Both the position numbers and the translations under genes were made by a program. Below, piece by piece: positions 1 through 58,260 of a stretch of DNA of 64,000 bases (position 1 is the first letter of the stretch; every line of letters begins with the position of its first letter). The notes below the pieces were generated by a model. The model did not search any database and was not told where the DNA came from. It saw nothing but the letters and a program-made list of their open reading frames with translations. The DNA comes from Eledone cirrhosa (Eukaryota): assembly GCA_964016885.1 (NCBI GenBank), contig OZ024741.1, positions 8,122,001 to 8,186,000 of the forward strand. Reading direction: 5' to 3'.

Positions 1-3000
1 AACTATAAATACATATAATAAATACAACTAACAACTGCTAGGAACCTCACAACTATAAATACATATAATAAATACAACTAACAACTGCGAAGGAAACTCA
101 CAACTATATATACATATAATAAATACAACTAGCAACTGCTAGGAGACTCACAACTATATATACATATAATAAATACAACTAACAACTGCTAGGAACCTCA
201 CAACTATATATACATATAATAAATACAACTAACAACTACTAGGATCCTCACAACTATATATACATATAATAAATACAACCAACAACAGCTAGGAACCTCA
301 CAACTATATATACATATAATAAATACAACTAACAACCGCTAGGAACCTCACAACTATAAATACAGTTAATAAATAGAACTAACAACTGCTAGGAGCCTTT
401 CAACTATAAATAAATATAATAAATACAACTAACAACTGCTAGGAATCTCACAGCCATATATACATATAATAAATACAACTAACAACTGCTAGGAGTCTCA
501 CAACTATATATACATGTAATAAATACAACTAACAACTGCTGGGAGCCTCACAACTATATATACATATAATAAATACAGCTAACAACTGCTAGGGGCCTCA
601 CAACTATATATACATATAATAAATACAACTAACAACTGCTAGGAACCTCACAACTATATATACATATAATAAATACAACTAACAACTGCTAGGAGACTCA
701 CAACTATATATACATATAATAAATACAACTAACAACTGCTAGGAACCTCACAACTATATATACATATAATAAATACAACTAACAGCTGCTGGGAGCCTCA
801 CAACTATATATACATATAATAAATACAACTAACAACTGCTAGGAACCTCACAACTATATATACATATAATAAATACAACTAACAACTGCTAGGAGACTCA
901 CAATTATATATACATATAATAAATACAACTAACAACTGCTAGGAACCTCACAACTATAAACACATATAATAACTACAACTAACAACTGCTAGGAACCTCA
1001 CAACTATATATTCATATAATAGAACTAACAACTGCTAGGAACCTCACAACAATATATACATATAATACAACTAACAACATCTAGGAACCTCGCAACTATA
1101 AATACATATATTAATACAACTAACAACTGCTAGGAACCTCACAACTATAAATACATATAACAAATACAACTAACAACTGCTAGGAACCTCACAACTATAA
1201 ATACATATAATAAATACAACTAACAACTGCCAAGGAGACTCACAACTATATATACATATAATAAATACAACTAGCAACTGCTAGGAGACTCACAACTATA
1301 TATACATATAATAAATACAACTAACAACTGCTAGGAACCTCACAACTATATTTATATATAATAAATACAAATAACAACTGATGGGAACCTCACAACTATA
1401 TATACATATAATAAATACAACTAACAACTGCTAGGATCCTCGCAACTATATATACATATAATAAATACAACTAACACTGCTAGGAGACTCACAACTATAT
1501 ATACATATAATAAATACAACTAACAACTGCTAGGAACCTCACAACTATATATACATATAATAAATACAACTAACACTGCTTGGAGACTCACAACTATATA
1601 TACATATAATAAATACAACTAACAACTGCTAGGAACCTCACAACTATATATACATATAATAAATACAACTAACACTGCTAGGAGACTCACAACTATATAT
1701 ACATATAATAAATACAACTAACAACTGCTAGGAACCTCACAACTATATATACATATAATAAATACAACTAACAACTGCTGGGAGCCTCACAACTATATAT
1801 ACATATAATAAATACAATTAACAACTGCTAGGAACCTCACAACTATATATACATATAATAAATACAACTAACAACTGCTAGAAGACTCACAATTATATAT
1901 ACATATAATAAATACAACTAACAACTGCTAGGAACCTCACAACTATAAATACATATAATAAATACAACTAACAACTGCTAGGAACCTCACAACTATATAT
2001 ACATATAATACAACTAACAACTGCTAGGAACCTCACAACTATATATACATATAATACAACTAACAACAGCTAGGAACCTCACAACTATAAATACATATAT
2101 TAATACAACTAACAACTGCTAGGAACCTCACAACTATAAATACATATAATACATACAACTACCAACTGCTAGGAGCGTCATAACTATAAATACGTATAAT
2201 ATATACAACTAACAACTGCTAGGAGCCTCACAACTAAATATACGTATAATAAATACAACTAACAACTGCTAGGAATCACACACCTATAAATACATAAAAT
2301 AAATACAACTAACAACTGCTAGGAGCCTCACAACTATACATACATATACTAAATACAACTAACAACTGCTAGGAGCCTCACAACTACATATACATATAAT
2401 AAATACAACTAACAACTGATAGGAGCCTCACAACGATATATACATATAACAAATACAACTAACAACTGCTGGGAGCCTCACAACTATATATACATATAAT
2501 AAATACAACTAACAACTGCTAGGAACCTCACAACTATATATACATATAATAAATACAACTAACAACTGCTAGGAACCTCACAACTATAAATACATATAAT
2601 AAATACAACTAACAACTGCTAGGAACCTCACAACTATAAATACATATAATAAATACAACTAACAACTGCGAAGGAAACTCACAACTATATATACATATAA
2701 TAAATACAACTAGCAACTGCTAGGAGACTCACAACTATATATACATATAATAAATACAACTAACAACTGCTAGGAACCTCACAACTATATATACATATAA
2801 TAAATACAACTAACAACTACTAGGATCCTCACAACTATATATACATATAATAAATACAACCAACAACAGCTAGGAACCTCACAACTATATATACATATAA
2901 TAAATACAACTAACAACCGCTAGGAACCTCACAACTATAAATACAGTTAATAAATAGAACTAACAACTGCTAGGAGCCTTTCAACTATAAATAAATATAA

Positions 3001-6000
3001 TAAATACAACTAACAACTGCTAGGAATCTCACAGCCATATATACATATAATAAATACAACTAACAACTGCTAGGAGTCTCACAACTATATATACATGTAA
3101 TAAATACAACTAACAACTGCTGGGAGCCTCACAACTATATATACATATAATAAATACAGCTAACAACTGCTAGGGGCCTCACAACTATATATACATATAA
3201 TAAATACAACTAACAACTGCTAGGAACCTCACAACTATATATACATATAATAAATACAACTAACAACTGCTAGGAGACTCACAACTATATATACATATAA
3301 TAAATACAACTAACAACTGCTAGGAACCTCACAACTATATATACATATAATAAATACAACTAACAGCTGCTGGGAGCCTCACAACTATATATACATATAA
3401 TAAATACAACTAACAACTGCTAGGAACCTCACAACTATATATACATATAATAAATACAACTAACAACTGCTAGGAGACTCACAATTATATATACATATAA
3501 TAAATACAACTAACAACTCCTAGGAACCTCACAACTATAAACACATATAATAACTACAACTAACAACTGCTAGGAACCTCACAACTATATATTCATATAA
3601 TACAACTAACAACTGCTAGGAACCTCACAACAATATATACATATAATACAACTAACAACATCTAGGAACCTCGCAACTATAAATACATATATTAATACAA
3701 CTAACAACTGCTAGGAACCTCACAACTATAAATACATATAACAAATACAACTAACAACTGCTAGGAACCTCACAACTATAAATACATATAATAAATACAA
3801 CTAACAACTGCCAAGGAGACTCACAACTATATATACATATAATAAATACAACTAGCAACTGCTAGGAGACTCACAACTATATATACATATAATAAATACA
3901 ACTAACAACTGCTAGGAACCTCACAACTATATTTATATATAATAAATACAAATAACAACTGATGGGAACCTCACAACTATATATACATATAATAAATACA
4001 ACTAACAACTGCTAGGATCCTCGCAACTATATATACATATAATAAATACAACTAACACTGCTAGGAGACTCACAACTATATATACATATAATAAATACAA
4101 CTAACAACTGCTAGGAACCTCACAACTATATATACATATAATAAATACAACTAACACTGCTTGGAGACTCACAACTATATATACATATAATAAATACAAC
4201 TAACAACTGCTAGGAACCTCACAACTATATATACATATAATAAATACAACTAACAACTGCTGGGAGCCTCACAACTATATATACATATAATAAATACAAC
4301 TAACAACTGCTAGAAGACTCACAATTATATATACATATAATAAATACAACTAACAACTGCTAGGAACCTCACAACTATAAATACATATAATAAATACAAC
4401 TAACAACTGCTAGGAACCTCACAACTATATATACATATAATACAACTAACAACTGCTAGGAACCTCACAACTATATATACATATAATACAACTAACAACA
4501 GCTAGGAACCTCACAACTATAAATACATATATTAATACAACTAACAACTGCTAGGAACCTCACAACTATAAATACATATAATACATACAACTACCAACTG
4601 CTAGGAGCGTCATAACTATAAATACGCATAATATATACAACTAACAACTGCTAGGAGCCTCACAACTAAATATACGTATAATAAATACAACTAACAACTG
4701 CTAGGAATCACACACCTATAAATACATATAATAAATACAACTAACAACTGCTAGGAGCCTCACAACTATACATACATATACTAAATACAACTAACAACTG
4801 ATAGGAGCCTCACAACGATATATACATATAACAAATACAACTAACAACTGCTGGGAGCCTCACAACTATATATACATATAATAAATACAACTAACAACTG
4901 CTAGGAACCTCACATCTATATATACATATAATAAATACAACTAACAACTGCTAGGAACCTCACAACTATAAATACATATAATAAATACAACTAACAACTG
5001 CCAAGGAGACTCACAACTATATATACATATAATAAGTACAACTAGCAACTGCTAGGAGACTCACAACTATATATACATATAATAAATACAACTAACAACT
5101 GCTAGGAACCTCACAACTATATTTATATATAATAAATACAACTAACAACTGATGGGAACCTCACAACTATATGTACATATAATAAATACAACTAACAACT
5201 GCTAGGATCCTCACAACTATATATACATATAATAAATACAACTAACACTCCTAGGAGACTCACAACTATATATACATATAATAAATACAACTAACAACTG
5301 CTAGGAACCTCACAACTATATATACATATAATAAATACAACTAACACTGCTAGGAGACTCACAACTATATATACATATAATAAATACAACTAACAACTGC
5401 TAGGAACCTCACAACTATATATACATATAATAAATACAACTAACAACTGCTAGAAGACTCACAATTATATATACATATAATAAATACAACTAACAACTGC
5501 TAGGAACCTCACAACTATAAATACATATAATAAATACAACTAACAACTGCTAGGAACCTCACAACTATATATACATATAATACAACTAACAACTGCTAGG
5601 AACCTCACAACTATATATACATATAATACAACTAACAACAGCTAGGAACCTCACAACTATAAATACATATATTAATACAACTAACAACTGCTAGGAACCT
5701 CACAACTATAAATACATATAATACATACAACTACCAACTGCTAGGAGCGTCATAACTATAAATACGTATAATATATACAACTAACAACTGCTAGGAGCCT
5801 CACAACTAAATATACGTATAATAAATACAACTAACAACTGCTAGGAATCACACACCTATAAATACATATAATAAATACAACTAACAACTGCTAGGAGCCT
5901 CACAACTACATATACATATAATAAATACAACTAACAACTGCTAGGAGCCTCACAACTAAATATACGTATAATAAATACAACTAACAACTGCTAGGAGCCT

Positions 6001-9000
6001 CACAACTATACATACATATACTAAATACAACTAACAACTGCTAGGAGCCTCACAACTACATATACATATAATAAATACAACTAACAACTGATAGGAGACT
6101 CACAACGATATATACATATAACAAATACAACTAACAACTGCTGGGAGCCTCACAACTATATATACATATAATAAATACAACTAACAACTGCTAGGAACCT
6201 CACAACTATATATACATATAATAAATACAACTAACAACTGCTAGGAACCTCACAACTATAAATACATATAATAAATACAACTAACAACTGCTAGGAACCT
6301 CACAACTATATATACATATAATAAATACAACTAACAACTGCTAGGAACCTCACAACTATAAATACATATAATAAATACAACTAACAACTGCCAAGGAAAC
6401 TCACAACTATATATACATATAATAAATACAACTAGCAACTGCTAGGAGACTCACAACTATATATACATATAATAAATACAACTAACAACTGCTAGGAACC
6501 TCACAACTATATATACATATAATAAATACAACTAACAACTGCCAGGATCCTTACAACTATATATACATATAATAAATACAACCAACAACAGCTAGGAACC
6601 TCACAACTATATATACATATAATAAATACAACAAACAACCGCTAGGAACCTCACAACTATAAATACAGTTAATAAATAGAACTAACAACTGCTAGGAGCC
6701 TTTCAACTATAAATACATATAATAAATACAACTAACAACTGATAGGAATCTCACAGCCATATATACATATAATAAATACAACTAACAACTGCTAGGAGTC
6801 TCACAACTATATATACATGTAATAAATACAACTAACAACTGCTGGGAGCCTCACAACTATATATACATATAATAAATACAACTAACAACTGCTAGGGGCC
6901 TCACAACTATATATACATATAATAAATACAACTAACAACTGCTAGGAACCTCACAACTATATATACATATAATAAATACAACTAACAACTGCTAGGAGAC
7001 TCACAACTATATATACATATAATAAATACAACTAACAACTGCTAGGAACCTCACAACTATATATACATATAATAAATACAACTAACAGCTGCTGGGAGCC
7101 TCACAACTATATATACATATAATAAATACAACTAACAACTGCTAGGAACCTCACAACTATATATACATATAATAAATACAACTAACAACTGCTAGGAGAC
7201 TCACAATTATATATACATATAATAAATACAACTAACAACTGCTAGGAACCTCACAACTATAAACACATATAATAACTACAACTAACAACTGCTAGGAACC
7301 TCACAACTATATATTCATATAATACAACTAACAACTGCTAGGAACCTCACAACTATATATACATATAATACAACTAACAACATCTAGGAACCTCGCAACT
7401 ATAAATACATATATTAATACAACTAACAACTGCTAGGAACCTCACAACTATAAATACATATAACAAATACAACTAACAACTGCTAGGAACCTCACAACTA
7501 TAAATACATATAATAAATACAACTAACAACTGCCAAGGAGACTCACAACTATATATACATATAATAAATACAACTAGCAACTGCCAGGAGACTCACAACT
7601 ATATATACATATAATAAATACAACTAACAACTGCTAGGAACCTCACAACTATATTTATATATAATAAATACAACTAACAACTGATGGGAACCTCACAACT
7701 ATATATACATATAATAAATACAACTAACAACTGCTAGGATCCTCACAACTATATATACATATAATAAATACAACTAACACTGCTAGGAGACTCACAACTA
7801 TATATACATATAATAAATACAACTAACAACTGCTAGGAACCTCACAACTATATATACATATAATAAATACAACTAACAACTGGTGGGAGCCTCACAACTA
7901 TATATACATATAATAAATACAATTAACAACTGCTAGGAACCTCACAACTATATATACATATAATAAATACAACTAACAACTGCTAGAAGACTCACAATTA
8001 TATATACATATAATAAATACAACTAACAACTGCTAGGAACCTCACAACTATAAATACATATAATAAATACAACTAACAACTGCTAGGAACCTCACAACTA
8101 TATATACATATAATACAACTAACAACTGCTAGGAACCTCACAACTATATATACATATAATACAACTAACAACAGCTAGTAACCTCACAACTATAAATACA
8201 TATATTAATACAACTAACAACTGCTAGGAACCTCACAACTATAAATACGTATAATATATACAACTACCAACTGCTAGGAGCGTCATAACTATAAATACGT
8301 ATAATATATACAACTAACAACTGCTAGGAGCCTCACAACTAAATACACGTATAATAAATACAACTATCAACTGCTATGAATCACACACCTATAAATACAT
8401 ATAATAAATACAACTAACAACTGCTAGGAGCCTCACAACTATACATACATATACTAAATACAACAAACAACTGCTAGGAGCCTCACAACTACATATACAT
8501 ATAATAAATACAACTAACAACTGATAGGAGCCTCACAACGATATATACATATAACAAATACAACTAACAACTGCTGGGAGCCTCACAACTATATATACAT
8601 ATAATAAATACAACTAACAACTGCTAGGAACCTCACAACTATATATACATATAATAAATACAACTAACAACTGCTAGGAACCTCACAACTATAAATACAT
8701 ATAATAAATACAACTAACAACTGCTAGGAACCTCACAACTATATATACATATAATAAATACAACTAACAACTGCTAGGAACCTCACAACTATAAATACAT
8801 ATAATAAATACAACTAACAACTGCCAAGGAAACTCACAACTATATATACATATAATAAATACAACTAGCAACTGCTAGGAGACTCACAACTATATATACA
8901 TATAATAAATACAACTAACAACTGCTAGGAACCTCACAACTATATATACATATAATAAATACAACTAACAACTGCTAGGATCCTCACAACTATATATACA

Positions 9001-12000
9001 TATAATAAATACAACTAACAACAGCTAGGAACATCACAACTATATATACATATAATAAATACAACTAACAACCGCTAGGAACCTCACAACTATAAATACA
9101 GTTAATAAATAGAACTAACAACTGCTAGGAGCCTTTCAACTATAAATACATATAATAAATACAACTAACAACTGCTAGGAATCTCACAGCCATATATACA
9201 TATAATAAATACAACTAACAACTGCTAGGAGTCTCACAACTATATATACATGTAATAAATACAACTAACAACTGCTGGGAGCCTCACAACTATATATACA
9301 TATAATAAATACAACTAACAACTGCTAGGGGCCTCACAAGTATATATACATATAATAAATACAACTAACAACTGCTAGGAACCTCACAACTATATATACA
9401 TATAATAAATACAACTAACAACTGCTAGGAGACTCACAACTATATATACATATAATAAATACAACTAACAACTGCTAGTAACCTCACAACTATATATACA
9501 TATAATAAATACAACTAACAGCTGCTGGGAGCCTCACAACTATATATACATATAATAAATACAACTAACAACTGCTAGGAACCTCACAACTATAAATACA
9601 TATAATAAATACAACTAACAACTGCTAGGAGACTCACAATTATATATACATATAATAAATACAACTAACAACTGCTAGGAACCTCACAACTATAAACACA
9701 TATAATAAATACAACTAACAACTGCTAGGAACCTCACAACTATATATTCATATAATACAACTAACAACTGCTAGGAACCTCACAACTATAAATACATATA
9801 ATAAATACAACTAACAACTGCTAGGAGCCTCATAACTATAAATACGTATAATAAATACAACTAACAACTGCTAGGAGCCTCACAACTAAATATACGTATA
9901 ATAAATACAACTAAAAACTGCTAGGAATCACACACCTATAAATACATATAATAAATACAACTAACAACTGCTAGGAGCCTCACAACTATACATACATAAA
10001 ATAAATACAACTAACAACTGCTAGGAGCCTCACAACTATATATACATATAATAAATACGATTAACAACTGATAGGAGCCTCACAACGATATATACATATA
10101 ATAAATACAACTAACAACTGCTAGGAATCTCACAACTATATATACATATAATAAATACAACTAACAACTGCTAGGAACCTCACAACTATATATACATATA
10201 ATAAATACATCTAACAACTGCTAGGAACCTCACAACTATATATACATATAATAAATACAACTAACAACTGCTAGGAGACTCACAACTATATATACATATA
10301 ATAAATACAACTAACAACTGCTAGGAACCTCACAACTATATATACATATAATAAATACAACTAACAACTGCTGGGAGCGTCACAACTATATATACATATA
10401 ATAAATACAACTAACAACTGCTAGGAACCTCACAACTATATATACATATAATAAATACAACCAACAACTGCTAGGAACCTCACAACTATATATACATATA
10501 ATAAATACAACTAACAACTGCTAGGAACCTCACAACTATATATACATATAATACAACTAACAACTGCTAGGAACCTCACAACTATATATACATATAATAA
10601 ATACAACTAACAACTGCTAGGAACCTCACAACTATATATACATATAATACAACTAACAACTGCTAGGAACCTCACAACTATATATACATATAATAAATAC
10701 AACTAACAACTGCTAGGGATCTCACAACTATAAATACATATAATAAATACAACTAACAACTGCTAGGAACCTCACAACTATATATACATATAATAAATAC
10801 AACTAACAACTGCTAGGAATCTCACAACTATATATACATATAATAAATACAACTAACAACTGCTAGGAGACTCACAACTATATATACATATAATAAATAC
10901 AACTAACAACTGCTAGGTACCTCACAGCTATATATACATATAATAAATACAACTAACAGCTGCTGGGAGCCTCACAACTATATATACATATAATAAATAC
11001 AACTAACAACTGCTAGGAACCTCACAACTATATATACATATAATAAATACAACTAACAACTGCTAGGAGACTCACAATTATATATACATATAATAAATAC
11101 AACTAACAACTGCTAGGAACCTCACAACTATAAACACATATAATAAATACAACTAACAACTGCTAGGAACCTCACAACTATATATTCATATAATACAACT
11201 AACAACTGCTAGGAACCTCACAACTATATATACATATAATACAACTAACAACATCTAGGAACCTCGCAACTATAAATACATATATTAATACAACTAACAA
11301 CTGCTAGGAACCTCACAACTATAAATACATATAATAAATACAACTAACAACTGCTAGGAGCCTCATAACTATAAATACGTATAATAAATACAACTAACAA
11401 CTGCTAGGAGCCTCACAACTAAATATACGTATAATAAATACAACTAACAACTGCTAGGAATCACACACCTATAAATACATATAATAAATACAACTAACAA
11501 CTGCTAGGAGCCTCACAACTATACATACATAAAATAAATACAACTAACAACTGCTAGGAGCCTCACAACTATATATACATATAGTAAATACAATTAACAA
11601 CTGATAGGAGCCTCACAACGATATATACATATAATAAATACAACTAACAACTGCTAGGAATCTCACAACTATATATACATATAATAAATACAACTAACAA
11701 CTGCTAGGAGACTCACAACTATATATACATATAATAAATACAACTAACAACTGCTAGGAACCTCACAACTATATATACATATAATAAATACAACTAACAA
11801 CTGCTGGGAGCCTCACAACTATATATACATATAATAAATACAACTAACAACTGCTAGGAACCTCACAACTATATATACATATAATAAATACAACCAACAA
11901 CTGCTAGGAGATTCTCAACTATATATACATATAATAAATACAACTAACAACTGCTAGGAACCTCACAACTATATATACATATAATAAATACAACTAACAA

Positions 12001-12874
12001 CTGCTGGGAGCCTCACAACTATATATACATATAATAAATACAACTAACAACTGCTATGAACCTCACAACTATATATACATATAATAAATACAACTAACAA
12101 CTGCTAGGAACCTCACAACTATATATACATATAATACAACTAACAACTGCTAGGAACCTCACAACTATATATACATATAACAAATACAACTAACAACTGC
12201 TAGGAACCTCACAACTATATATACATATAATAAATACAACTAACAACTGCTAGGAACCTGACAACTATATATACATATAATACAACTAACAACTGCTAGG
12301 AACCTCACAACTATATATACATATCATAAATACAACTAACAACTGCTAGGAACCTCACAACTATATATACATATAATAAATACAACTAACAACTGCTAGG
12401 AACCTCACAACTATATATACATATAATAAATACAACTAACAACTGCTAGGGATCTCACAACTATAAATACATATAATAAATACAACTAACAACTGCTAGG
12501 AACCTCACAACTATATATACATATAATAAATACAACTGACAACTGCTAGGAATCTCACAACTATATATACATATAATAAATACAACTAACAACTTCTAGG
12601 AACCTCACAACTATATATACATATAATACAACTAACAACTGCTAGGAACCTCACAACTAGATATACATACATATAATACAACTAACAACTGCTAGGAACC
12701 TCACAACTATATATACATATAATAAATACAACTAACAACTGCTAGGAACCTCACAACTATATATACATATAATAAATACAACTAACAACTGCTAGGAACC
12801 TCACAACTATATATACATATAATAAATACAACTAACAACTGCTAGGAACCTCACAACAGCTAGGAGCCTCACAA
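1..12874. repeat. 50-bp AT-rich tandem satellite (about 255-260 copies in the window, open at the left edge), with higher-order duplication
   Basis: Monomer caactatatatacatataataaatacaactaacaactgctaggaacctca repeats every 50 nt (e.g. 601-650). 46-, 49- and 51-bp variants occur. The diagnostic variant tacagttaataaatagaact recurs at 361, 2942, 6664 and 9097. Confidence 0.98.
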
Positions 12875-13066
12875 GGCCAACAAATTTTTGGGAAAGGAAA
12901 AGTCAATTAAATCGACCCCAATTCATTACTGGTACTTTATTTTGTCGACTCCCTAAGGATTAAAGGCAAGGCTAACCTCGGTGGGATTTGAAATCAGAAC
13001 GTAAAGGGACGTAACTGTATGCTGCTAAGCATGGTTTCCGATGCTCTACCGAATATGCTAAACCGT
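12870..13066 (-). mobile_element. tRNA-derived SINE, diverged copy on the minus strand (cephalopod-like family)
   Basis: Its reverse complement aligns with 13800-13992: shared ttctga.ttcaaat.cc.ccgaggtta.c.ttgccttt.atcctt..gg.gtcga.aaaataaagtaccagtaatg and a tggcctt.tg tail. The B-box is degenerate. The family assignment is from recollection, not a search. Confidence 0.75.
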
Positions 13067-13184
13067 TACAAATATATTATGAAAGCGATAGAAAGAAGCA
13101 TTAATTGACCAACAGGTGAAAGAATAGGTCACACATCACAGGGATCAACGGATTATTTTGAGGTAAGTCAACACTCACAGCATT

Positions 13185-13545
13185 ACTGCGGGTGATGGCG
13201 AGGCTAAGGTGCTGGAAACAACCAAGCACCCTCACAGACATCACCTGACCCCTCAGTAAAGAGAGGTGATGGCGAGGCTAAGGTGCTGGAACAACCAAGC
13301 ACCCTCACGGACATCACCTAAAATCTCAGTAAAGAGAGGTGATGGCGAGTCTAAGGTGCTGAAACACCCAAGTATTCTCACGGGCATCACCTGGCACCTC
13401 AGTAAGGTGGGGGTGACGGGAGGGGTGGAGGCTAAGGTGCTGAAACACCCAAGCATTCTCACGGGCATCACCTGGCACCTCAGTAAGGTGGGGTGACGGG
13501 AGGGGTGGAGGCTAAGGTGCTGAAACAACCAGGCACCCCCACAGT
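13185..13545. repeat. GC-rich minisatellite, about 5 copies of a 73-81-bp unit
   Basis: ag(g/t)ctaaggtgct recurs at 13201, 13275, 13348, 13429 and 13509 (spacings 74, 73, 81, 80). Each unit contains ctcac.g.catcacct...ctcagtaa. Confidence 0.9.
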
Positions 13546-13799
13546 ATAATTGAAAATATGCTGCAAAACATTATTCTTGAATTCCGGAATCATATGAACG
13601 GTCAGTATGTAATAACAGATGTCTTAGTTTTAGTTAGTCTTAGTCTTAGTCTTAGTTTTAGTCTTAGTTTTAGATCTTCTCGCACCTTAACCCGTTTGAT
13701 ACCAACCAACCCCAAACCACTTCTATGGAATAAAACCACTCATTTTAAAGGGTTTCTATCTAAATGAAAATCTTCCAGCATTATTTTATATTAAAAAAA

Positions 13800-13992
13800 G
13801 GCGGTGGATTGGCAGTATCGGTAGAGGGTCGGACGCCATGCTTTGAAGCATAGAGTTACGGCCCTTTCTATTCTGAGTTCAAATACCGCCGAGGTTAACT
13901 TTGCCTTTTATCCTTGCGGGGTCGATAAAATAAAGTACCAGTAATGCACTGGGATAATTGCTGGCCTTTTGCCCAAAGTAGAAACAATTATT
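13800..13992 (+). mobile_element. tRNA-derived SINE with Pol III A and B boxes
   Basis: A-box-like tggcagtatcgg (13810-13821) and B-box gagttcaaatacc (13875-13887), then ggggtcgataaaataaagtaccagt and an AT-rich tail. It is an inverted homolog of 12870-13066. Confidence 0.8.
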
Positions 13993-14288
13993 TTATATAA
14001 AAACCTTTTAAGTTACAAATTTATTTGAATGAAATAATTATTCCAGTAAATTCTCTTAAATTCTGCATTAATTAATTCAAATACAATTTATATTATTAGA
14101 AATACGGTAAGGCAAGGGTTGAGGCACACAAGGTACCAAGATTCCGTTAGCACAGTCGATCTACTGCGTGGTTCTCTCCACACGTCGGGTGGTGCGAATA
14201 TTCGAGTGGGGTGTGAATATTCGAGACTCGAGAGTAGACAACACAGCCCAGACTTCAAAAATAAGTCTATGACATTTTCTCTCACATT

Positions 14289-14291
<3 letters not shown>

Positions 14292-14339
<48 letters not shown>
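14292..14339. repeat. (TA)n microsatellite
   Basis: Pure TA run. Confidence 0.95.
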
Positions 14340-14343
<4 letters not shown>

Positions 14344-14489
14344 ATACTTTGGGAGGGTCATATTGCAATATTATTGCCAGAAATAATAACAGAACACACT
14401 CACTGTTTGGTTAGTTTTCGCTTCTACATCTTATATATCTCCACAGTTAATTCATTTGCCCATCAGTGTTTATCACTGACACCCAAAAA

Positions 14490-14650
14490 CAATGATCAGG
14501 TGATAAAAATAGTCGCGCATGCAATAGGGACCAGCATTAAAACTATCCCAAAGGGCCATATATTCAAACTCAATAAAAAGATCTACACCCAAAATGAGGG
14601 AGCAGCCATCGGCGTCAGCATAGCTGGTAATGTTGCCAATCTTTTTATGA
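14490..14650 (+). pseudogene. Fragment of a divergent Penelope-like reverse transcriptase (motif B' region)
   Basis: HIFKLNKKIYTQNEGAAIGVSIAGNVANLFM aligns without gaps to [31 protein letters not shown] in the intact PLE ORF at 16605-18737. The fragment ends in a fold-back inversion. Confidence 0.7.
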
Positions 14651-14682
14651 TACCATAAAAAGATTGGCAACAACATCAGCTA
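14621..14682. repeat. Fold-back inverted repeat (19-bp perfect stem, 4-nt loop) terminating the RT fragment
   Basis: tgttgccaatctttttatg (14631-14649), loop atac, then cataaaaagattggcaaca (14654-14672). Outer tagctg/cagcta also pair. Confidence 0.95.
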
Positions 14683-14745
14683 TATATATATATATATAGT
14701 ATAAAAAAACCAAAAGTCAGTGATGCATCTGGACTCAATTTATTG

Positions 14746-14836
14746 CGTGTTACAATTGTTTCGCCGGCATGTAGCTCGAGACATGGTCCTTGTATGGATC
14801 TGGCTGATTCTACGGCTGCAGGTTCCTTCAGACACG
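14746..14836 (-). ncRNA. Type I hammerhead-ribozyme-like motif (Penelope type), left arm
   Basis: Minus strand reads CGUGU-CUGAAGGA-[~60-nt helix II]-GAAA-C-AAUU-GUA/ACACG. Helix I CGUGU:ACACG is perfect, the helix III loop is palindromic (ACAAUUGU) and the cleavage triplet is GUA. The core deviates from CUGANGA. Confidence 0.6.
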
Positions 14837-14879
14837 GGTATTTCGTTTGGAGCAAATTTTTATCTCCGAACGAACTACA

Positions 14880-14970
14880 CGTGTCTGAAGGAACCTGCAG
14901 CCGTAGAATCAGCCAGATCCATACAAGGACCATGCCTCGAGCTACCTGCCGGCGGAACAATTGTAACACG
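14880..14970 (+). ncRNA. Type I hammerhead-ribozyme-like motif, right arm (GAAA mutated to GGAA)
   Basis: cgtgt-ctgaagga-acctgcagccgtag...ctacctgccggc-ggaa-c-aatt-gta-acacg. It mirrors 14746-14836 with one further core substitution. Confidence 0.5.
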
Positions 14971-15074
14971 CAATAAATTGAGTCCAGATGCATCACTGAC
15001 TTTTGGTTTTTTTATACTATACACACTCTACTCTGTTGAATATTGAGTGCTAATTTTGGCATACCGCCTATGGA

Positions 15075-15094
15075 AGCACCATAGGTACCATTAT

Positions 15095-15184
<90 letters not shown>

Positions 15185-15202
15185 CACCATAGCTACCATT
15201 AT

Positions 15203-15270
<68 letters not shown>

Positions 15271-15288
15271 ATATATATATATATATAT
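15075..15288. repeat. Two-copy tandem duplication of agcaccatag(g/c)taccattata-(CA)n-(TA)n
   Basis: The core occurs at 15075 and 15183 (period 108), each time followed by CA then TA runs. Confidence 0.9.
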
Positions 15289-15427
15289 GAAAAGTGTAAT
15301 TTTCTACACAAAACGAAGGTTATAGAGAAAATTGGGGTTGGTAATGGCACATGGAATATATAAGAGACAGAATACTTTTTTGTGAAAAAACATAATTTTA
15401 TAAGGTAAGGAAATAATAAAGGGTATA

Positions 15428-15477
15428 AAAAATGACCGGTTTCGATGGGTCTGCAAAAGCCATCTTTTCAAATGTTG
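15428..15477 (-). ncRNA. Minimal type I hammerhead-ribozyme-like motif with U3:A8 core variant, in the putative PLE pLTR
   Basis: Minus strand reads aacat-UUGAAAA-GAUGG-cuuuugcagac-CCAUC-GAAA-C-CG-GUC/auuuu. Helix II GAUGG:CCAUC is perfect, helix III is the palindrome ACCGGU, the triplet is GUC and helix I is weak. It lies in the same orientation as the PLE ORF. Confidence 0.65.
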
Positions 15478-15705
15478 ATTAATATTAAGAAAAATTAATA
15501 ATACGAAGAGTTAAAATTTGAGACTTGAAAATTCAAGTATAAAATTCATTGTGGGATTTCATAGCAGTTTTCATCTAGGTACCAACAACAGGTTGACTGC
15601 TGTGTCCCTTTCTGGTAGTGAATGAGAAGTTATTTGGGGTGTGGGTTATTTTATAAAGGTCAGATTTAGCAATAGCCAGCTGCTGGTCAGTGAGGGGGTG
15701 GAAGC

Positions 15706-16456
<751 letters not shown>

Positions 16457-16604
16457 CGTGTGTGCACGTGCAGGGTTTAACATGGATGTGTTGGTCACAC
16501 AAAGGCATGGTCTGTCAATGAATAAACCTGATTCTACAGAATTGGTCTCTGGTCTTTAATAGTAGTGATTCCGTGCGTATGTGTGTTTATATTTTATGAC
16601 AATT

Positions 16605-18737
16605 CTATTGGGGTGATAACCCGTTTAGTTTTGGTTTAAATTTGTTAAGGAATAGATTTTCTTTGTTTATTCTTTGTTGTTGTGTGAACGAATCTGAGCA
16701 CTTGTAGAAGGGGAAGATTTTAAAGTTGGGTAGTGTCATTCCTGCGCAGTTCGCAATATGGCTGCTCAAGGGGATTTTTCTTGTGTTAGCGTCCCGGATT
16801 TGTTGGCGGTGGATGGTCATTCTTTTGCGTAATGAGGTGCCCGTCTGTCCTATGTAGTTGTGTTTGCACCCACCGCAAGTTATTGCGTAAATCAAGTTCT
16901 CCGAGTTGCAGGTGAAATTGTTTTTTACTGTAAATGTTTGGCCATCTTTGAATGTAAATGTTTGTCCTTCAGTGAGGTAGAGGCACGTTCCACAGTTTGT
17001 TCTACCACATTTGGTAACTGTAGGGTTGAGGATTGGTTTGGGTATATTTGGTCCAGTGAGAATGCGTTTAAGTGATTTGGGTTGTCTTTTACTTTTAAGG
17101 ATCTTGTGTGTTTCAAGAATAGACTTCATTTTTACATCTTTAAGTAGGATGGGGAGGTTTTTGTGTAGGTGATCAAACATTTCGGTATTTCTGGGGTTGA
17201 AAGTGGATACATATGGCAGGGTGTTGAGTGTGGTTTTCTGTTTTGGATTGTTAAGTTGATGGGGATTTAGGTGTTTTGCCCTGTCTATTCCATTGTTGAT
17301 TATTTCAAGTGGAAAGGCTCTTAAGATAAGGGTGTCTTTTAGTTCCTTTAGTCTTTGCTCCCGTTTAGGTGGATCTGATACTATGGTACATATACGTTTG
17401 GCCAAATTGTAAGGAATGTTAAGTTTTGTATGTTTTGGGTGACTTGATGTGAAAAAGAGGTATTGCTTGGAATCTGTGGGTTTATAGAATATATCTGTAT
17501 CTAATTTCCCGTCTATTACAGAGATGAGAATATCCAAGAAGGCTAATTCCTTAGGATTGGATTCCATTGTGAATTGTATGTTATTATCTATGTTGTTTAT
17601 CATGTTTTTAAACGTAGTAAGTGAGTTCATGTCTTCTTGCCATAGGATAAAGCAGTCGTCTAGATATCTTTTCCAATTGGCTTTGAGGTGTGTGTGGAAA
17701 GAGTCTCCAAATAAGAGAAGGGACTGACTGTATATTTGTTGTTCATGGAATCCCATGACTAGGTTGGCATATGTGGGTGCTACTTTCGTGCCCATTGCCG
17801 TACCTGATACTTGTCTGTATGTTGAACCATTGAATGTGAAGTAGTTATTTTGTAGGATAAAGCGGAGTCCGTCAGTGATAAAATCTGTGTTGATGCGTGT
17901 CGGTATTTCTGATGGGTGTGTGTTAAGCCAGTATTGGACTGCTGTTATTCCATAGTTGTGAGGTATGTTTGTGTAGAGGTTTATTACGTCAAAGGAGACA
18001 AGAATTGTATTTGCACTTACTGTTTTAGGGAGGTGTTTCAGCATGTCAAGGTCATCTCGTATGTAGCTCTGTATATGTTGTAGAAAGGGTTTCAGTAGGA
18101 TGTCCAGAAAGTTGCTAAGTCTGTGGGTTTCACATGTAGGGCCTGCTATAATTGGCCTGAGTTTTAGGTCTTCTGGTGGTGTTAGTTCAATGTAATTGTT
18201 GGTTGAGGTGTCACATGCATCGTTTATGGGTTTACATTTGTGAAGTTTCGGTAAGCCGTAAAAAGAGCTTGTATTGCATTTGAAGTGGCTTATATAGTTA
18301 AACTCTTTTGTGGTTAAGCTGTTGCGGTATTTATTCAGTAAGGTCAAAAGGTTCCCCATTGTTTTGGTGTGTTTGTAGTTTTCTGTTTTTTCATAGTATG
18401 TGTTGTTTTCTAAAATGTTAAGTGCGAGGGTCCTATAGTAGTCCGTATTCATAATCACAACAGTACTGCCTTTATCGGCTTCTTTGATAGTTATCTCAGG
18501 GTTGTTTCTAAGTGTGAATAATTCTTCCCATTCGTGTGTAGATAGGTTTGATTTCGTGTGTTTATTTGTAATTGTTTCATAGGGAAAGTTGGTGATGTGT
18601 TTGCAGTACGTGTCCAGTGCTTTATTTCTTCCCTTTTGTGGGCAGAAATTGCTTTTATTTCTAACCAGTGATTCGTCTTCAGTGTTGGTGTCGTTGTGGG
18701 AGAATTCCGTTAGTCGCAGCTTTCGGCAGTATTCCAT
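16605..18737 (-). CDS. Penelope-like element ORF: reverse transcriptase plus GIY-YIG endonuclease (N-terminally truncated, 710 aa uninterrupted)
   Basis: RT motifs: [76 protein letters not shown]...SSHP. Linker CGRTNCGTC. Endonuclease [19 protein letters not shown]...RM..H. Confidence 0.96.
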   Translation of the reverse strand: [710 protein letters not shown]

Positions 18738-57153: not shown

Positions 57154-57166
57154 GTTGATAAGTTAC

Positions 57167-58260
57167 AAAGTAATATTTTAACAGCAGACGATGAAGAAAA
57201 CACGAGAGGATATGTTAAAAAGTAATATTTTAACTGCAGACGTTGAAGAAAACACGAGAGGAGATGTTAAAAAGTAATATTTTAACAGCAGACGTTGAAG
57301 AAAACACGAGAGGAGATGTTAAAAAGTAATATTTTAACAGCAGACGTTGAAGAAAACACGAGAGGAGATGTTAAAAAGTAATATTTTAACAGCAGACGAT
57401 GAAGAAAACATGAGAGGAGATGTTAGAAAGTAATATTTTAACAGCCGACGATGAAGAAAACACGAGAGGATATGTTAAAAAGTAATATTTTAACAGCAGA
57501 CGATGAAGAAAACACGAGAGGAGATGTTAAAAAGTAATATTCTAAAAGCAGACGATGAAGAAAACACGAGAGGGTATGTTAAAAAGTAATATTTTAAAAG
57601 CAGACGATGAAGAAAACACGAGAGGAGAAGTTAAAAAGTCATGTTTTAACAGCAGACGACGAAGAAAACCACTTGCAGAGATGTTAAAAAGTAATATTTT
57701 AACAGCAGACGATGAAGAAAACACGAGAGGAGATGTCAAAAAGTAATATTTTAACAGCAGACGATGAAGAAAACACGAGAGGATATGTTAAAAAGTAATA
57801 TTTTAACAGCAGACGATGAAGAAAACACGAGAGGATATGTTAAAAAGTAACATTTTAACAGCAGACGATGAAGAAAACACGAGAGGAGATGTTAAAAAGT
57901 AATATTTTAACAGCAGACGATGAACAAAACACGAGAGGATATGTTAAAAAGTAATATTTTAACAGCAGACGATGAAGAAAACACGGGAGGAGATGTTAAA
58001 AAGTAATATTTTAACAGCAGACGATGAAGAAAACAACTTGCAGAGATGTTAAAAAGTATTATTTTAACAGCAGACGATGAACAAAATACGAGAGGATATG
58101 TTAAAAAGTAATATTTTAACAGCAGACGATGAAGAAAACACGAGAGGAGATGCTAAAAAGTAATATTTTAACAGCAGACGATGAAGAAAACACGAGAGAT
58201 GTTAAAAGTAATATTTTAACAGCAGACGATGAAGAAAACAACTTGCAGAGATGTTAAAAA
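57167..58260. repeat. 52-bp minisatellite, about 21 copies
   Basis: Unit gttaaaaagtaatattttaacagcagacgatgaagaaaacacgagaggagat (period 52, e.g. 57181 to 57233). A variant unit with acttgcagag occurs at ~57670, ~58035 and ~58240. Confidence 0.97.

Follow-up and report, generated by a model that had tools for sequence, protein, structure and literature searches.

The window, by which we mean the whole stretch of 64,000 nt analysed here (positions 1-64,000), is a satellite-rich part of a 3.0-Gb animal genome. Inverted-repeat analysis of the window located at 14695-15021 the 327-bp palindrome that the initial annotation had described with about 6 mismatches; its arms (14695-14852 and 14864-15021) are 158 nt each, and 6 mismatches were counted. 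The arms stood as annotated, but the extent of the element did not: the 11-nt "spacer" between them belongs to the element as part of the left arm, and the right arm extends into a tail of about 80 nt, which in full-length copies is element sequence leading towards the ORF (Table 1). The 5' end of the left arm lies at or adjoins the family's 5'-end hotspot. Every part previously read in the arms was found there, namely helix I CGUGU:ACACG, the core CUGAAGGA, ACAAUUGU, the GUA triplet, AATAAA and a T-rich end, as well as GAAA, which is replaced by GGAA in the right arm.

Several other repeats lie in the window. Satellite arrays occupy 1-12857, 19423-57153 and 57162-58240 (50-bp unit x259, 37-bp x1020 and 52-bp x21), and an inverted pair of a 148-nt repeat, 81% complementary, is found at 12917-13064 and 13806-13953; this repeat resembles a tRNA-derived SINE. 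In the segment 14560-14683, the end of another repeat family (93 nt, 40 scored places, 90-95%) is succeeded by a small local inversion, which gives a hairpin (14620-14683) next to the (TA)n that also borders the palindrome. The arrangement is possibly a second truncated-plus-inverted insertion.

Table 1. Features of the palindrome and its borders (window positions)
Feature	Position	Strand	Remarks
(TA)n target microsatellite, left end	14681..14694	no strand	(TA)4+ lies 3' of 73/86 pattern-picked copies
Left arm, inverted pLTR unit without tail	14695..14863	-	11-nt "spacer" included
Left hammerhead motif	14746..14836	-	matches subfamily core; helix I 14836-14832/14750-14746; C3 at 14831; G12 at 14762; predicted cut 3' of A17, position 14751
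Right arm, 5'-truncated pLTR	14864..15021	+	sense on +
Right hammerhead motif	14880..14970	+	private A13G at 14955; helix I 14880-14884/14966-14970; core CUGAAGGA 14885-14892, one additional nt after A6; helix III 14957-14964; predicted cut 3' of A17, position 14965
Extended helix II	14894..14952	+	distal hairpin eroded in the window's subfamily
PLE tail of about 80 nt	15022..15099	+	right arm only
(CA)n(TA)n after tail	15100..15288	no strand	then a local duplication: last ~20 nt of the tail plus (CA)n(TA)n

A search of the source genome with one arm returned 2846 first-look candidates, and the 40 that were scored gave 52 matches of 89-100% identity. The sequence is multi-copy, occurring both as palindromes and at the ends of RT-EN elements. 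Reading upstream from the arm, the matched loci contain a GT/TA-rich 3' UTR and then a GIY-YIG endonuclease. Among 20 loci picked by their endonuclease, 12 carry the arm in sense 1.2-3.1 kb downstream; upstream, an inverted arm or tail was seen at 10 and a directly oriented copy at 3. Two loci, L033 and L044, are full length and share the order pLTR plus tail, ORF, 3' UTR, pLTR plus tail. The PLE (Penelope-like element) origin proposed in the initial annotation is supported. The ORF of L044 comprises 971 codons in a single frame with 4 internal stops; an apparent open frame inside the arm was rejected as the element ORF, because the real one starts after the tail, about 55 nt 3' of it. The motif YR.D of L044 (YRDD in L033) is followed by YIG, giving a single ORF that has RT and, at its C-terminal end, GIY-YIG. 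RWR is found at aa 37 (a conservative change from RWK) and DKT (a changed DKG) at aa 123, while L031 and L033 contain the CxCx5C linker (CNCRAGTQC), CxxC (CRLC) and CxH (CRH), of whose cysteines two are lost in L044. The CCHH motif was absent from the parent-element proteins examined, and their GIY-YIG core holds one Cys only. The motifs distributed across L031, L033 and L044 (RWR, DKT, CxCx5C, CxxC, CxH) can be set beside RWK, DKT, CxCx5C, CxxC/CxH and missing CCHH, which are Hydra-clade diagnostics according to PMC8557442. On the strength of these motifs, and with published Hydra sequences compared by eye, we assign the arm to the pLTR of an autonomous Hydra-clade PLE encoding RT together with GIY-YIG at the C-terminal end. 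Neptune/Nematis, considered for the Cys linker, was rejected on CxCx5C, DKT, RWR and the absent CCHH.

Profile searches added little to this assignment: Pfam gave a sub-threshold GIY-YIG match (E=0.02), RT was not matched in the parent-element protein, and a protein homologue search with the RT piece yielded 1905 candidates with none at E<=1e-10, which is weak evidence. The preference for (TA)n insertion is pronounced, being seen in 19 of 20 copies of the window's core type and in 73 of 86 pattern-picked loci overall, a few of these loci being paired arms from a single insertion. The ORF of L044 (about 970 aa) carries, between RT thumb and EN linker, long low-complexity insertions rich in Gly, Thr, Ala and Arg (aa ~560-690 and ~745-800). 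The clade is very abundant in this genome, where a Hydra-type endonuclease query returned 55,079 first-look candidates, and other Hydra-like families of 32-44% identity adjoin many loci.

The initial annotation had suggested a search with the Rfam hammerhead models; no family matched at E<=10 in window positions 13000-17000. Because motifs with a long helix II are missed by Rfam here, they are probably undercounted elsewhere. Lunse et al. (2017) reportedly collected about 150,000 PLE hammerhead variants, with which the long-helix-II type possibly overlaps. Exact patterns with a 54-64-nt gap were searched in the source genome, with reversed patterns as controls. We found 586 matches for CTGAGGA, 845 for CCGTCGA, 704 for CCGANGA and 145 for CTGAAGGA, all with 0 in the controls, and 935 matches (control 1) for older families with a canonical core and G10.1. 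With 145 to 935 places for each architecture pattern as compared to 0-1 for the reversed controls, the recurrence is not due to chance, and the long helix II is shared by many families, with no fewer than 3,200 copies that fit an exact pattern. The core variant thus belongs to a subfamily (the 145 exact matches) and is not peculiar to the window copy. Canonical cores with helix II spans of 22-52 nt gave 394 matches (control 2); they comprise several families unrelated in sequence, so that helix II may have been enlarged on more than one occasion. A metagenome pattern scan produced 4 matches, none with helix I pairing, and these were dismissed as chance. Two further arrangements were seen in the genome. 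At L053 (oriented 945-1875), four short-helix-II hammerheads with 310-bp spacing form a retrozyme-like tandem beside a Hydra-type element. At L198 (near 1500) and L060 (579-753), the same hairpin-plus-CTAG sequence, presumably a Helitron-like 3' end, abuts the 3' strand of helix I at most 2 nt from the predicted cut site.

The motif is a minimal type I hammerhead with a palindromic helix III, as had been proposed, with three helices around the core. Covariation analysis of aligned copies, another of the suggested checks, revealed two-sided changes in 3 of 5 pairs of helix I and, along helix II, in 5 of 18, while helix III is invariant and keeps its palindrome as AAUU or AUAU. Of 30 older copies, 24 form 4 or more pairs in helix I, and in the youngest subfamily the first pair of this helix has returned to perfect pairing. 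The reported non-canonical core was confirmed in both arms: set against the consensus C3 U4 G5 A6 N7 G8 A9 / G12 A13 A14 / A15.1-U16.1 / H17, both contain an extra nucleotide after A6, and the right arm also has A13G. A canonical hammerhead in the pLTR, which is descriptive of the clade and not defining, is not seen in the window's subfamily, but the older relatives are canonical.

Helix II was rightly annotated as abnormally long. It measures about 60 nt and is a family trait, consisting of CC/GG, GCAG/CUGC and (G)UAG/CUA(C), a conserved 4x4 internal loop (GARUC/YGAGC), an AG/CU helix and a distal hairpin; the loop of about 35 nt that it was thought to cap is in fact a further paired extension. 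RNAalifold on 14 real copies gave an extended helix II of 13 pairs, 5 of them with two-sided changes. In the full 26-pair model, 90.7% of cells pair, as compared to 25-41% when the model is slid. The covariation measures are inflated by the relatedness of the copies: 33 cells changed on both sides versus 12.8 in shuffles (0/500), and two of the five measures were not above shuffles (pairs with two-sided change, 8 versus 6.2, 96/500; further pair types, 488/500). Older copies (n=30) have a span of 58-61 nt and stems of differing sequence, and the halves of the internal loop are found as GARUY in 22/30 and YGAGC in 17/30. Since the structured helix II is already present in these older families, we regard it as an inherited structure; the "cargo insert" of the initial annotation does not hold for what is a family-wide hairpin with compensatory changes. 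The two helix II folds of the window (-15.0 and -12.7 kcal/mol, z -1.15 and -0.31) are no better than shuffles, and those of three sister copies range from -19.6 to -21.0 kcal/mol (z -1.4 to -3.1). Inspected by eye, the internal loop was judged not to be a K-turn.

The cores of the different subfamilies form an ordered series. Trees were built from the surrounding ~145 columns with the core removed (107/135 copies; a second tree of 56 copies includes older families, five poor rows being left out). The resulting ladder starts from older canonical families and CUGAGGA, and runs CUGAGGA > CCGAGGA > CCGUCGA > CCGACGA > CCGAAGA > CCGAAGGA > CUGAAGGA, with tree figures of 95/89 for CCGAGGA, 100/99 for CCGUCGA, 100/100 for CCGACGA, 100/94 for CCGAAGA, 100/99 for CCGAAGGA and 100/96 for CUGAAGGA. 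The masked-core tree needs 10 label changes, the minimum possible. An endonuclease tree nests the same groups and does not settle the root between the CCGAGGA group and a single canonical-core copy; the order rests on the masked-core tree rooted on older families. Divergence from group majorities (3.4-5.5%) gave no order for the young subfamilies, since each group is a mixture. According to the ladder, the window's core is a U4 reversion plus an insertion after A6. Along the ladder C3, G5, G8, A9, G12-A14 and GUA are fixed, partly as a consequence of the search patterns, although the EN-picked and flank-picked sets mostly agree, while U4 and A6 revert; the 10.1:11.1 pair of the young lineage is A-C, A-A or A-G. 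These trees show stepwise drift of the core during the continued spread of the element.

The 5' ends of the copies bear on the RNA template. Among 80 distinct arms of the window's subfamily, a sample that demands an intact helix II, 22 start 114-117 nt upstream of the cut, in a 4-nt window at CAGTGATAAAA, 12 start over 119-280 nt, and 33 extend beyond 280 nt. Two further sets of 30 copies each, one from the young lineage and one from a canonical-core family, were selected by nothing but the downstream flank of the cut. In each set 1 of 30 was assigned an end at the cut; on inspection by eye, one of these two copies has a 2-nt deletion and continues upstream, and the other abuts a different repeat. 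Copy ends do not accumulate at the cut site in either flank-picked set, not even in the canonical-core family, where 8/30 ends lie 104-118 nt upstream of the cut. As the 5' ends cluster 114-117 nt upstream and not at the cut, uncut RNA was likely the template. The hotspot, known from copy ends only, likely marks the RNA 5' end, that is, the transcription start, although an RT pause site would look alike. Its CA+GT resembles an initiator motif. Such a sharp hotspot is genomic evidence in favour of RT priming internally on RNA that is uncut, and offers a testable account of how inverted pLTRs form.

Junctions were compared at 11 distinct loci with two inverted arms among L001-L030, leaving out duplicates and one 2.9-kb palindrome. 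All 11 differ, which suggests that palindromes likely formed anew at insertion. In 10 of the 11 the tail is on one arm only (p ~0.006 if arms are independent, given a tail in 42/80 arms). The annotation had explained the palindrome as a non-coding, MITE-like PLE derivative, which would make it a non-autonomous element copied as a unit, and short head-to-head pairs are indeed frequent: 6/20 copies of the window's core type have an inverted partner within 1.5 kb, as do 10/30, 5/12 and 5/24 in three further classes. Many of these pairs are similar in size, because the arms often start at one hotspot. This explanation is nevertheless very improbable. The arm is the pLTR of an RT-EN element, the differing junctions speak against copying as a unit, and the two ends are unlike, hence there are no TIRs; arm lengths vary up to kilobases, in some cases with ORF sequence (L031), and the same structure arises in every sister subfamily. 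Neither a fixed length and junction nor identical TIRs and a TSD were found in the 11 palindromes examined. It is scarcely credible that the palindrome is an assembly artefact from a fold-back read: perfect-looking palindromes can arise in this way, and the short public contigs examined did not span the junction, but 6 sites differ between the arms, only one arm has the tail, and the identical architecture with other junctions recurs across the genome.

We therefore consider it very likely that the palindrome consists of two head-to-head pLTRs of an autonomous Hydra-clade PLE, probably joined in a single insertion, and that they carry a dimer-type type I ribozyme with an inherited helix II of about 60 nt and predicted weak cleavage. 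In the proposed mechanism, the element endonuclease would cut both strands of (TA)n, and the RT would prime at two sites rich in TA that lie immediately 3' of the ribozyme. The RT would copy the uncut RNA through to its 5' end, likely the transcription start ~115 nt upstream of the cut site, and the two short cDNAs would then be joined 5' to 5'. Both arms have their 3' ends at TA-rich element motifs, which would give microhomology to (TA)n. This mechanism agrees with the Anolis Poseidon system, in which cutting and extension affect both strands, two internal sites serve as RT starts, and insertion in vitro persists in HHR mutants (PMC11167929). Inverted 5'-truncated copies with a one-sided tail are a known PLE trait (PMC8557442), and opposite-strand minimal HHR pairs 100-700 bp apart have been reported (PMC4209133). 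The palindrome itself is a known, ordinary kind of PLE insertion by-product. Since each strand holds one sense ribozyme only, the two ribozymes cannot form a cis dimer, and a read-through transcript is predicted to fold into a hairpin of -286.5 kcal/mol. The genomic copy is thus likely inert, each strand's single sense ribozyme being buried by read-through in the modelled 158-bp hairpin and the right one also bearing A13G.

How active the ribozyme is in the RNA of the subfamily is a separate question. Among published variants, activity is low with the A6a insertion and is considerably reduced in vitro by U4C (PMC3088659), and the window-subfamily ribozyme, with its extra nucleotide after A6, would be predicted to cleave weakly at best. 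Judging from the sequences, we rank attenuated cleavage as the most likely state, full activity with protein or tertiary help second and a dead relic third. Full activity of the variant cores in vivo, where helix II with its conserved loop, or the element protein, would offset U4C, A6U or A6a, seems rather unlikely to us. It would explain why GARUC/YGAGC is kept though the stems differ entirely between families, and it agrees with the constancy of G8, G12 and C3:G8 and the reversion of U4 and A6; in addition, the Anolis PLE hammerhead needs its protein for cleavage (PMC11167929), and a U4C viroid remains infectious (PMC3088659). On the other side, copy ends are not piled at the cut site even in the canonical-core family, which could also mean that cut RNA is not reverse-transcribed, and the largest single class of the young lineage (the 845 matches) bears two core changes.

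A ribozyme that is dead in the young lineage, with pairing merely inherited and without selection, is improbable. The weak folding and eroded distal hairpin of the window's subfamily and the fixation of core changes in successive subfamilies are in line with it, but young subfamilies differ by two-sided changes at helix II pairs 20-69, 21-68, 25-66, 34-57 and 36-56 and at helix I pairs, and the first pair of helix I has become perfect again in the youngest of them. The fixed core positions and the U4 and A6 reversions also argue against a dead ribozyme. We tentatively put forward another possibility, that the large hammerhead is kept as an RNA scaffold, probably a docking site for its own RT-EN, with catalysis reduced or lost in the most recent subfamilies. 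If so, the ladder would represent a dated series in which a ribozyme turns into a non-catalytic structural element, and cleavage would be dispensable for the spread of PLEs in a genome.

Among known systems, the Hydra-clade C-terminal EN+ PLEs (Craig et al. 2021, PMC8557442; e.g., Hydra-1_Obim and Penelope-13_HM) likewise have a single RT-EN ORF with RW[KR], DKT, a CxCx5C linker, CxxC/CxH and no CCHH, and they share the (TA)n target, the 3' hammerhead, the inverted 5'-truncated copy and the one-sided tail. Hydra elements are typically <3 kb with a tail of 30-40 bp, whereas the element described here is about 4.4-5.5 kb with a tail of 80 nt and a longer 3' UTR (1.2-3 kb). Published Hydra hammerheads (PMC8557442 File S2) have canonical CUGAnGA cores and a helix II with stems of 3-7 bp and loops of 3-10 nt, in contrast to the ~60 nt and altered core found here. 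Closer in some respects are the minimal type I PLE hammerheads (Cervera & de la Pena 2014, PMC4209133), which share the type I topology, short helix I, palindromic helix III (dimer type), an extra nucleotide after A9, a longer helix II and the opposite-strand pairing. Their helix II, however, has 7-8 bp with a conserved G10.1-C11.1, whereas here it has about 17-18 pairs with internal loops, and U4, A6 and the core length vary. Natural core variants (Perreault et al. 2011, PMC3088659) also include A6a and U4C, both of low activity in vitro; there they are rare single cases, while in this genome one retrotransposon subfamily after another, with hundreds of copies, has them fixed.

The Selaginella PLE-X hammerheads (PMC8557442 File S2) are similarly long, with two motifs and a loop II of 29-34 nt, but they belong to EN-less plant elements with a canonical left core, and the table does not describe a conserved extended hairpin. 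Non-LTR retrozymes (bioRxiv 10.64898/2026.07.22.740005) are likewise non-coding, derived from PLE pLTRs and equipped with a type I hammerhead; they are head-to-tail tandem repeats, in contrast to the head-to-head pair with variable junctions seen here. A retrozyme assignment was rejected, as the window contains two inverted copies only and no direct tandem of a short unit occurs among 30 loci. In the literature on octopus and PLE hammerheads and long stem II, of which coverage was partial, we did not find this architecture or the core ladder; the supplements of PMC4209133 may show similar motifs. What PLE hammerheads do, and whether they are mere parasites of the element, is a question raised in the literature (PMC8557442, PMC11167929). 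Within one genome, we find seven natural cores that follow one another in order on a shared scaffold. Each has reached tens or hundreds of copies, which allows activity to be measured against transpositional success. The long-helix-II architecture and the core series are what is new relative to known PLE hammerheads, and they provide a useful natural experiment.
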